Notes under the pieces: model-generated
What the model saw: only the letters and a program-made list of their open reading frames with translations
The model's database searches: none
What the model was told of the DNA's origin: nothing
Assembly (NCBI GenBank): GCA_016206155.1
Contig: JACQSC010000001.1
Location: 5,105-69,104, forward strand
Source: Candidatus Uhrbacteria bacterium
Lineage (GTDB): Bacteria > Patescibacteriota > Patescibacteriia > JACQRZ01
Length of the DNA stretch: 64,000 nucleotides
Direction: 5' to 3'
Part shown: positions 62,397 through 63,766 of the stretch, one piece after another
Layout: each line of letters begins with the position of its first letter
Numbering within the stretch: the stretch's first letter is position 1
Program-made: the position numbers and the translations under genes

Positions 62397-63263
62397 ATGG
62401 TAGAACACACAACCGAAAAACTGAAAACATATTTTGAAAAACGCGACGATGTACTGTTGGCGTTTCTTTTTGGTTCTCGTGGCACGGGACTGACACGCCC
62501 ATCATCAGACTGGGATATTGCGGTGTATCTCACACCACGTCAATGGGGTGAGCTGGAAACGAAACATGAATATCAAGGTGAATCTGATATTCGCGCCGAT
62601 GTTGAGCGATTAGTATCAGCCGACGTTGACCTTGCTGTGCTTAATCGCGCGCGCCCCTCATTGGTTTTTTCGATATTGAATTCCGGTCTGCCGCTTGCGC
62701 TCAAAGACATGCGCCTGTATCTCACACTTCTTTCCCGCACTCATTATGATGCCGTTGACTATTGGAATTTTGTCCAGGAATATCGAACACTCTATGAACG
62801 GGCACAATCACTTGCACCAGAAGCGCGAGCGCTTCTTCTTGAGCATCTTACCTTTCTTGAGAACGAACTTGAGGACGCAGAAAAATTTTCTCACATCACC
62901 TACAAGGAGTATCAAGAAAAAAGAGATACCCGACGGAACATCGAGCGGTGGATTGAAAACTGCGTGATGAGCGCGCTTGACATCGCAAAGGTTATTCTCG
63001 CATCAGAAAAAAGGGATGTTCCGCAAACATATAAAGATATGCTCCGTGAGTTTGGGGCGCTGCTTGTTTCCGAGGAATTTGGGGAAGCATTTTCGGAGTA
63101 TGCCTCGTTGCGCAACATCCTTGCGCATGAATATATGGATCTTCGCTGGGAACGTATTGAGGGATTCGCGCGCAATGCGACCCCTCTCTATTCCAAATTT
63201 ACTTCAGCGGTTAAAACATATCTCTCCGATCAGCACAACGCTCCGGGCGGTATGGTTGAATAA
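62397..63263 (+). CDS. fused minimal nucleotidyltransferase (MNT) and HEPN/HepT-like domain protein
   Basis: N-terminal LFGSRGTG..SDWDIAV NTase motif; C-terminal RNILAHEY (Rx4HxY HEPN motif). Confidence 0.55.
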   Translation: MVEHTTEKLKTYFEKRDDVLLAFLFGSRGTGLTRPSSDWDIAVYLTPRQWGELETKHEYQGESDIRADVERLVSADVDLAVLNRARPSLVFSILNSGLPLALKDMRLYLTLLSRTHYDAVDYWNFVQEYRTLYERAQSLAPEARALLLEHLTFLENELEDAEKFSHITYKEYQEKRDTRRNIERWIENCVMSALDIAKVILASEKRDVPQTYKDMLREFGALLVSEEFGEAFSEYASLRNILAHEYMDLRWERIEGFARNATPLYSKFTSAVKTYLSDQHNAPGGMVE

Positions 63264-63297
63264 CGTATAATCGGACGTATAATCGTCCGATTATACG
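63264..63297. promoter_or_regulatory. 14-bp perfect inverted repeat flanking a TATAAT hexamer (probable operator over the -10 box)
   Basis: cgtataatcggacg-tataat-cgtccgattatacg, 10 nt upstream of ATG 63308. Confidence 0.5.
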
Positions 63298-63307
63298 CAG
63301 ACATCGC

Positions 63308-63496
63308 ATGAAAACACAAACATTCGTTCGTAAATTGCAGAAAATCAGCTCGCACTCTTATGTGATCAATGTTCCAAAAACATTCATTGATCACTTCGGG
63401 TGGAAGGAGCATCAAAAACTCACCCTCTCGCTTGGAGAGCGCAAACGCGGCATTCGCCTTGCGGATTTTGCGCCTCGAAGAACATCAAAAATATGA
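63308..63496 (+). CDS. AbrB/MazE/SpoVT-like small DNA-binding protein (antitoxin-like)
   Basis: VINVPKTFIDHFGWKEHQKLTL resembles a swapped-hairpin domain. Confidence 0.45.
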   Translation: MKTQTFVRKLQKISSHSYVINVPKTFIDHFGWKEHQKLTLSLGERKRGIRLADFAPRRTSKI

Positions 63497-63766
63497 GTGG
63501 AGAATTGAATACGATCGTCAAGGGAAACACTATGTGGCAACGCAAGTATGGACAGTTCAAGATAGGAAGATACATGTTCTTACATTCACCGCGCTTTCTG
63601 GCGAAATTCACGATCTCTATTATCCAGTGTTTATGAACATGGTGCAGACGTTTGAGCTTTTTTAGAATCAATCAGACCAACAGCAAGACCATTGTTTTTT
63701 GTTGAGTTTCGTATCTCGCCGGTGTATACTATAAGGGTTAATCATTTTTTATTTCTATGGAACAGC

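Follow-up and report, generated by a model that had tools for sequence, protein, structure and literature searches.

A FhepTA-like fused MntA-HepT gene and a neighbouring small AbrB-like gene with an operator-like palindrome in a Candidatus Uhrbacteria contig

Location and gene content

The locus described here lies near the end of a 64,000-nucleotide stretch of Candidatus Uhrbacteria bacterium (GenBank assembly GCA_016206155.1, contig JACQSC010000001.1, positions 5,105 to 69,104 of the forward strand), which was analysed as a whole and is referred to below as the window. It consists of a gene for a 288-amino-acid (aa) protein in which an MntA-like minimal nucleotidyltransferase (MNT) domain is joined to a HepT-like HEPN domain, a palindromic element, a gene for a 62-aa AbrB-like protein, and a third open reading frame (ORF) that overlaps the small gene. 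The locus is likely to represent two independent modules lying side by side, namely a fused type VII toxin-antitoxin (TA) system resembling FhepTA and an autoregulating AbrB-fold gene, whose adjacency is coincidental. The features are as follows, in window coordinates.

62397..63263, + strand: fused MntA (nucleotidyltransferase)-HepT (HEPN RNase) gene, FhepTA-like, 288 aa in one unbroken ORF (Pfam, NCBIfam, AlphaFold2 (AF2), Foldseek)
62415..62747, + strand: MNT/MntA-like nucleotidyltransferase domain, aa 7-117 (PF18765, NF047752, invariant alignment columns)
62472-62516, + strand: GSx10DxD motif (G26, S27, D38, D40) inside the MNT domain; the third acidic residue is D78
62802..62816, + strand: linker between the two domains, aa 136-140, QSLAP (AF2 secondary structure)
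62847..63209, + strand: HepT/DUF86 HEPN domain, aa 151-271 (PF01934, NF047751, alignment, matches to solved HepT toxins)
63111-63134, + strand: RNase motif R239-x4-H244 and predicted AMPylation site Y246 (Rx4HxY), inside the HEPN domain
63256..63283, + strand: sigma-70-like promoter match for the small gene, TTGAAT-16 nt-TATAAT, a consensus match only (10/12)
63264..63297, no strand: 34-bp operator-like element of three 10-bp units CGTATAATCG, direct at 63264-73 and 63276-85 and inverted at 63288-97, with a 12-bp period
63308..63496, + strand: gene for a 62-aa protein of the AbrB/MazE/SpoVT superfamily, a predicted autorepressor (homologues, codon-position bias, profile relatives)
63459..63665, + strand: orphan ORF, 68 aa from TTG 63459, a small lineage-specific gene or gene remnant

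The fused protein

Profile, motif and fold searches agreed on the domain composition. The Pfam scan placed PF18765 (Polbeta nucleotidyltransferase) at the N-terminus (aa 7-104, 8.6e-17) and PF01934 (HepT-like) at the C-terminus (aa 155-271, 5.8e-15). Two NCBIfam equivalog models, MntA_antitoxin (NF047752, 65.2 bits) and HepT_toxin (NF047751, 65.6 bits), scored over their cut-off of 60. The motifs read G26-S27-x10-D38-W-D40 and R239-N-I-L-A-H244-E-Y246. A preliminary description of the locus, made from the letters alone, had proposed a single protein with a nucleotidyltransferase N-terminus and a HEPN domain carrying Rx4HxY, and had named profile searches for the two domains as the check; these searches recovered both domains, and all the sequence features of that description were found where it had placed them.

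Conservation was assessed in an alignment of 33 homologues (46-80% identity) from the candidate phyla radiation (CPR), Thermodesulfovibrionales, Aminicenantes and Syntrophaceae. Residues G26, S27, D38, D40, D78, R239 and Y246 were invariant, H244 was kept in at least 90% of the sequences, and the tyrosine two residues past H244, Y246, was present in 33/33. The inter-domain linker region was likewise strongly conserved. The protein has one cysteine only, C189, in an alignment column that is mostly leucine among the homologues.

The AF2 model of the fused protein (mean predicted local distance difference test score, pLDDT, 86) shows an MNT nucleotidyltransferase fold joined to a HEPN helical bundle by a 5-residue linker. 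A long helix (aa 105-135), the last of the MNT domain, is followed by a break at aa 136-140 and by the first HEPN helix (aa 141-158). Taken separately, the domains fitted HepT and MntA at Foldseek template-modelling (TM) scores of 0.66-0.84: the C-terminal half matched the HepT crystal chains 7ae8, 7ae9 and 6m6u_D at TM ~0.8 with a root-mean-square deviation (rmsd) of 2.3-2.9 A, and the N-terminal half matched the MntA chains 7bxo_A and 6m6u_A at TM ~0.67. AMPylated HepT crystal structures were among the matches.

Two observations concern the DNA upstream of the gene. A candidate promoter was found by eye, with TTGACC at 62347-62352 and, after 17 nt, the extended -10-like sequence TGgTAATCT at 62367-62375; it lies under the threshold of the scan tool. 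The 528-aa protein encoded further upstream (60732-62318) gave no Pfam, NCBIfam or convincing PADLOC match and is an orphan.

Known counterparts and distribution

The fused protein is 100% identical to the NCBI entry 'DUF86 domain-containing protein [Candidatus Uhrbacteria bacterium]' (P0001), and a homology search with it returned at least 585 related database proteins. Among the best 120 of these, lengths ranged from 203 to 313 aa, nearly all between 276 and 313, and both Pfam domains were present in nearly all. Named sources of relatives include Uhrbacteria, Vogelbacteria, Thermodesulfovibrionales, Aminicenantes and Syntrophaceae, and the Joint Genome Institute label on such relatives is 'YutE/DUF86 / predicted nucleotidyltransferase'.

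Anantharaman et al. (2013) noted that DUF86 HEPN domains are 'occasionally fused to MNT' and thought fused HEPN domains typically inactive (PMC3710099). More recently Yao et al. (NAR 2026) described FhepTA (SO_1440), a 276-aa fused MNT-HEPN protein from prophage CP4So of Shewanella oneidensis, with the MNT domain at 1-132, the HEPN domain at 136-276, GSx10DxD at D41/D43 and RxxxxHxY at Y240 (PMC13000451). FhepTA tri-AMPylates its own tyrosine, its HEPN domain is toxic when isolated, and its MNT domain blocks HEPN dimerisation; two extra cysteines, C163 and C270, form a redox switch that is specific to SO_1440 even within Shewanella (PMC13000451). The fusion in the window is thus a member of an already known, recently characterised kind and is not exotic, so that the suggestion of an unconventional system made in the preliminary description is not upheld for the fusion.

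Like FhepTA, the window protein is a single chain of about 280 aa with an N-terminal MNT domain, a C-terminal HEPN domain and a linker of a few residues. The motif positions, compared via the published description, are D41/D43 in FhepTA and D38/D40 in the window protein, and Y240 and Y246, respectively. Self-oligoAMPylation of the tyrosine beside the RNase motif, demonstrated by experiment in FhepTA, would be the mechanism expected of the window protein as well. The two differ in host, FhepTA being gammaproteobacterial and the window protein patescibacterial, and in setting, since FhepTA lies in a prophage whereas the window gene shows no sign of a prophage or mobile island.

The two-gene type VII HepT/MntA systems of S. 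oneidensis (SO_3166/SO_3165; PDB 5yep, 7aer, 6m6u) and Aphanizomenon flos-aquae (HEPN/MNT; PDB 7ae2-7ae9) share the domain families, the catalytic motifs, the acceptor tyrosine and the gene order, with MNT 5' and HEPN 3'. Alignment of the window protein with split haloarchaeal and Thermus plasmid pairs was collinear. In contrast to these pairs, the window gene is one ORF with a conserved linker, so that the antitoxin is not a separate product with a level of its own to control. CapRel(SJ46) and EzeT also combine a toxin with a neutralising domain in one chain, but their folds and chemistry are unrelated. Both forms coexist in one metagenome-assembled genome (MAG; GCA_040960625.1, L100), in which a split MntA (98 aa) and HepT (118 aa) pair at 2475-3120 lies ~900 bp upstream of a fused MNT-HEPN gene at 4001-4834.

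The single-chain MntA-HepT architecture, studied so far only in Shewanella, is accordingly a large and well-conserved family that spans Patescibacteria and several other phyla and keeps its catalytic and acceptor residues. In view of this conservation, the earlier general statement that fusion to MNT usually goes with an inactive HEPN domain needs qualification.

The small AbrB-like gene

The closest homologue of the 62-aa protein is P0122, 87% identical and encoded at locus L005/L018; a further relative is P0123 (53 aa). Between the window and L005, the 62-aa frame shows 6, 4 and 16 substitutions at codon positions 1, 2 and 3, and this third-position bias indicates that the frame is under selection. 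The L005 record is labelled 'uncultured Gammaproteobacteria'; the closest relative sits in an Uhrbacteria genome.

A 3-sequence profile of the family was searched exhaustively against 1.84 billion representative proteins and gave 100 relatives, mostly of 50-65 aa. PF04014 (MazE/SpoVT-AbrB) was matched by 72/86 of the profile-found relatives (best E 4.7e-9), 16 relatives matched TIGR01439 (AbrB), and 9 matched TIGR02609 (doc-partner antidote). Searched against the PDB, the family profile matched the AbrB N-domain structures 2k1n, 1yfb and 1z0r and 'addiction module antidote' structures (E 4e-3 to 8e-3). The 62-aa protein therefore belongs to the AbrB/MazE/SpoVT superfamily by a transitive assignment through its relatives, in line with the AbrB/MazE-like identity first proposed for it. 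An AF2 model of the monomer, built from a 3-sequence alignment, has strands at 10-14 and 17-21, a helix at 24-30 and a strand at 35-39, an order that fits the fold, but with a pLDDT of only 59. Matches of the small ORFs to KwaB in PADLOC (E 0.003-0.04, in scans with the 62-aa and 98-aa ORFs) were dismissed as noise.

With the N-domain of Bacillus subtilis AbrB and the swapped-hairpin SpoVT/MazE superfamily (PF04014; 1yfb, 1z0r, 2k1n) the 62-aa protein shares a domain length of ~50 aa and the pattern R-K-x(n)-G ... P-K/x, and its predicted strand-strand-helix-strand order may correspond to their beta-beta-alpha-beta-beta order. Unlike AbrB, it consists of the predicted DNA-binding domain alone, without a C-terminal multimerisation domain, and its family motif, (F/V)RKLxKxGxxSYxxxxPK...GW(K/R)E(H/R)QKL...DWKK, is distinct. 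AbrB sites are degenerate, whereas the family's predicted operator is a sharply defined palindrome. AbrB-fold antitoxins ('doc_partner' TIGR02609, MazE, and the 'addiction module antidote' of PDB 9vzc/9vyb) resemble the family in size, in predicted fold and in putative autoregulation via an upstream palindrome, but no conserved toxin partner stands beside members of the family.

The distribution of the gene was examined by a genome scan with a 10-sequence query and one genome per species. This gave 140 genomic relatives, with named records mostly from Patescibacteria, among them Saccharibacteria, Paceibacteria, Moraniibacteria, Magasanikbacteria, Kaiserbacteria and Peribacteria, often with two or three copies per genome. 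Paralogue sets were seen in one Saccharibacteria MAG (L019/L020/L028), in one Magasanikbacteria MAG (L070/L073/L087) and on a single contig, 6 kb apart (L064/L095); the upstream palindromes differ among some of these paralogues, which suggests paralogue-specific operators. Some relatives carry the domain in tandem within one chain, in two or four copies: P0130 (226 aa, four matched stretches), P0190 (109 aa) and P0221 (108 aa). Such chains would be covalent 'dimers/tetramers', in keeping with phased operator units.

The palindromic element

Directly after the stop codon of the fused gene lies a perfect 14-bp inverted repeat (63264-63277 and 63284-63297) around a 6-nt loop, TATAAT (63278-63283), and it ends 10 nt before the ATG of the small gene at 63308. 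The repeat had been recognised in the preliminary description and is here refined to three 10-bp units. By first-order Markov simulation, the window is expected to hold ~0.2 perfect inverted repeats with arms of at least 12 and none with arms of at least 14. Given the three-unit structure, the 'loop' TATAAT is the core of the middle unit and also the -10 hexamer of the promoter match.

The layout recurs upstream of the P0122 gene (L005/L018), where CGTATAATCG-tt-CGATTAATCA-tg-CGATTATACG forms the same 34-bp three-unit arrangement 13 nt before the ATG, in flanking DNA unrelated to that of the window. The upstream gene there is divergent and more than 200 bp away, so the element at that locus cannot terminate a co-directional gene. 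Across the family, a perfect inverted repeat of at least 10 bp was present within 120 nt upstream in 46/74 loci (62%), against 24/250 (9.6%) of the controls, which were other genes of at least 150 aa in the same loci (Fisher p = 2.6e-19). The median distance from the end of these palindromes to the start codon is 21 nt. In 12 family loci, as opposed to 1/267 controls, two to four CG-N6-CG units recur with a period of exactly 12 bp, examples being CGTATATACG three times in L023, CGTAATTACG in L028 and L047, and CGAAATTTCG in L033 and L039. Loci that have an arm 8-mer in common encode more similar proteins (0.58 vs 0.49 identity, p = 7e-6). The family-wide palindromes and this sharing of words point to a family of autoregulatory DNA-binding proteins that differ in specificity from paralogue to paralogue, and the element in the window behaves as the predicted operator of the small gene, travelling with it. 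An operator placed over the promoter is plausible from the AT-rich, -10-like unit cores, the promoter consensus match being seen in the window and not in L005.

It is regarded as unlikely that the palindrome acts chiefly as RNA, whether to terminate the fused gene's transcript or as a hairpin that stabilises its 3' end. Read as RNA, the element would form a hairpin of -22.7 kcal/mol (z-score -4.7) immediately after the stop codon, and in L098 a classic terminator occupies this position behind a homologue of the fusion. Against this, the stem is followed by CAGACAUCGC with no U-tract, and the terminator scan does not pick the element up. L005, which lacks a co-directional gene upstream, keeps the outer 10-bp units and not the stem extension, its hairpin reaching -14.8 kcal/mol in comparison with -22.7 kcal/mol in the window, and palindromes occur upstream of the small gene throughout the family, whatever the upstream gene.

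The third ORF

The third frame opens mechanically at an ATG and runs for 98 aa (63369..63665), with TTG 63459 in frame; the small overlapping ORF noted in the preliminary description, from this TTG to 63665, is thus contained in it. Counted from the TTG, it shares 38 nt with the 3' end of the 62-aa gene, and gene callers differ over which of the two to call. The unique part (63498-63662) has a codon score of 0.184, which ranks at the 55th percentile for windows in the true reading frame and is reached by effectively none (0.00) of the out-of-frame controls, while the portion overlapping the 62-aa gene scores as non-coding in the frame of the third ORF.

No homologue was found in a search of 5.8 billion proteins or in a metagenome scan, nor was there a Pfam or NCBIfam match, and the ORF is not present downstream of the 87%-identical homologue in L005. 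Three further candidates were rejected. A tblastn comparison gave no similarity to the 489-aa gene that follows the L005 homologue, of which the ORF might have been a remnant; phmmer found nothing for the orphan tail as a C-terminal extension of longer AbrB-family proteins; and the single metagenome match was a chance GEIHDLYY word in a 1083-aa protein of unrelated length and sequence. The ORF may be what is left of the 3' part of an older gene, or a small lineage-specific gene starting at TTG 63459 or 63468. A toxin role is conceivable, though nothing supports it.

Genomic contexts of the two genes

The neighbourhoods of the fused gene and of the small gene were compared by profile searches at homologous loci. 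An AbrB-family gene was found within 4 kb of the fusion homologues (52-78% identity) at 0/6 distinct loci, and MNT or HEPN domains were found within 3 kb of AbrB-family genes at 0/80 loci. The three closest fusion homologues (71-78% identity) have as neighbours a giant surface protein and an AAA ATPase, an fn3 protein, and an SLT transglycosylase, and their downstream gaps of 89-170 bp leave no room for an AbrB-like gene. More distant homologues lie between an S12 operon and EF-P, near rubrerythrin, and beside a split MntA/HepT pair and trigger factor. Small ORFs called just after the fusion homologues in L098 and L100 were rejected as counterparts, as they are related neither to one another nor to the ORFs of the window, and one starts inside a terminator.

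Among 42 AbrB-family loci with a close downstream gene, 35 of the neighbours were singletons and no Pfam family occurred in more than two. The recognisable ones were FtsH, glycosyltransferases, histidine kinases, PGK, TatD and a type II/IV secretion-system ATPase (PF00437), and no recurring toxin was found among the 42. The lack of a recurring partner argues that the 62-aa family is not an antitoxin with a dedicated toxin. Since the fusion occurs elsewhere without the small gene, and the small gene elsewhere without MNT or HEPN, the adjacency in the window is read as coincidence.

Interpretation

By homology with the characterised systems, the MntA-like nucleotidyltransferase, with its GSx10DxD motif, would use ATP to oligo-AMPylate Tyr246 in the HepT/HEPN domain of the same chain. 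The modified Tyr246, two residues past the catalytic histidine, would silence the R239x4H244 RNase, and the tethered MNT domain probably also impedes the HEPN dimerisation that activity would require. Release of the RNase might follow from ATP depletion, de-AMPylation or proteolysis of the MNT part. The 62-aa protein, as a dimer or tetramer, most likely binds the three phased CGTATAATCG units over its own -10 region, and binding would repress the small gene and anything co-transcribed downstream. It belongs to a family with several paralogues per Patescibacteria genome, each with a predicted palindromic operator of its own, and would have no dedicated antitoxin role. The domains, motifs and fold of the fused protein, the retention of the operator-like element with the small gene and the absence of linkage between the two genes are shown by the sequence comparisons, and AMPylation, RNase toxicity, DNA binding and repression are inferences.

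Several points weigh against this two-module interpretation or parts of it. FhepTA has four cysteines, including the C163/C270 redox pair, to which the window protein has no counterpart, possessing C189 only; with a single cysteine, control by AMPylation and oligomerisation would be expected and redox control would not. The redox cysteines, being specific to SO_1440, do not define the fused architecture. The window HEPN domain is nearer to Aphanizomenon HepT (7ae8/7ae9) than to Shewanella HepT, so the window fusion and FhepTA are possibly products of independent fusion events, their likeness being one of published motifs and layout. The 62-aa window protein has no direct Pfam or NCBIfam match and its monomer model is poor, which makes its placement among AbrB proteins a transitive one. 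Of the autoregulation geometry proposed in the preliminary description, the operator is kept with the gene and family-wide, but the overlap with a promoter is seen in the window and not in L005, where an equivalent of TTGAAT-16-TATAAT was not found on the + strand. The element may in addition help to form the 3' end of the fusion transcript, since it abuts the stop codon of the fused gene and would fold into a strong RNA hairpin.

Two further alternatives concern the genes themselves. The small gene, as antitoxin, and the third ORF, as toxin, might be a type II TA pair of their own, making up a small TA islet together with the adjoining fused type VII system. Their geometry is TA-like, in that a putatively autoregulated AbrB-fold gene is overlapped over 38 nt by a partner of ~68 aa, and the unique part of the third ORF has the codon usage of real genes; the ORF nevertheless lacks homologues and domain matches and is absent at L005, and the downstream neighbours in the family are mostly singletons (35/42), the recognisable ones being housekeeping genes and not toxins, which makes such a pair quite unlikely. 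Slightly less probable, and judged very unlikely, is a domesticated two-domain nucleotidyltransferase of the kanamycin/ANT(4') or lincosamide type, outside any TA system, whose HEPN-like part only binds substrate. ANT(4') (6un8) and LinB (3jyy) rank top among the full-length Foldseek matches, but these matches are poor (TM 0.26-0.30, rmsd ~16 A) beside those of the separate domains (0.66-0.84), R239 and Y246 are invariant with H244 in at least 90% of homologues, and both NCBIfam equivalog models are passed.

The compound TA locus suggested in the preliminary description, in which the three ORFs form one system with the AbrB-like protein as regulator or second antitoxin of the fusion, is barely credible: the genes are adjacent on the same strand with the palindrome directly after the fusion stop codon, AbrB/MazE-fold proteins are common as TA antitoxins and autoregulators, and nine relatives match the TIGR02609 'addiction module antidote', a name that the best PDB match also bears, but the operator lies downstream of the fused gene and away from its promoter, the nearest small-gene homologue has the same operator in a different context, the third ORF has no homologue, and the absent co-occurrence (0/6 and 0/80 loci) largely refutes the claim already. 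With that claim gone, the locus itself is ordinary.

The interpretation as two independent modules leaves the small gene as a representative of its family. It is tentatively suggested, at somewhat less than even probability, that this is a large undescribed Patescibacteria/CPR family of minimal AbrB-fold transcription factors, with several autoregulating paralogues per genome and private operators of 2-4 ten-bp CG-N6-CG units at a strict 12-bp period. No paper linking AbrB with CPR or Patescibacteria, or describing the phased operator, was found in the searchable literature. If the suggestion is correct, the family may be among the main transcription-factor families of the reduced CPR genomes, and CPR regulons could be mapped by reading the operator code straight from the sequence. 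A small AbrB family with paralogue-specific operators could then be a tractable entry into transcriptional regulation in these uncultivated organisms.

Mobility and other repeats

Neighbourhoods differ wholly among the fusion homologues, which fits mobility of the gene. No integrase or phage gene adjoins the fused gene in the window, the phage and viral-contig collections gave no relatives of the fusion, and the GC profile around the locus has no marked anomaly and no clear island signature. The plasmid collection returned distant versions only (22-31% identity), most of them annotated as two genes. Genes for IS200/IS605-type Y1 transposases (PF01797) were seen a few kb from the AbrB homologue in L005 (4583-5260) and from a fusion homologue in L017 (4937-5086), and their presence near both gene types hints at recombination-prone regions.

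The window also contains long perfect palindromes, with arms of up to 25 bp and the core AATGG(G/T)GTCAGG, at 20720-20773, 37802-37850, 49985-50053, 58365-58420 and 60005-60074, and a half copy at 62314-62325, a short way upstream of the MNT-HEPN gene. With at most 2 mismatches allowed, the core was matched 19 times, compared with 6.8 expected, and 0/100 shuffles reached 19. Two of the palindromes lie in frame inside the ORFs of metG (57234..58835) and TatD (59850..60722), and the set is reminiscent of repetitive extragenic palindromic (REP) sequences, miniature inverted-repeat transposable elements (MITE) or Rickettsia palindromic elements. Similar cores flank fusion homologues or the AbrB homologue on other contigs (just after 4849 in L014, just after 1086 in L017, and at 2339-2365 in L005). 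A perfect 34-bp palindrome without a loop (17+17), AAATCAACGGCTAAACC followed directly by GGTTTAGCCGTTGATTT, occupies window positions 37855-37888 and adjoins a pair of the AATGGGGTCAGG type.

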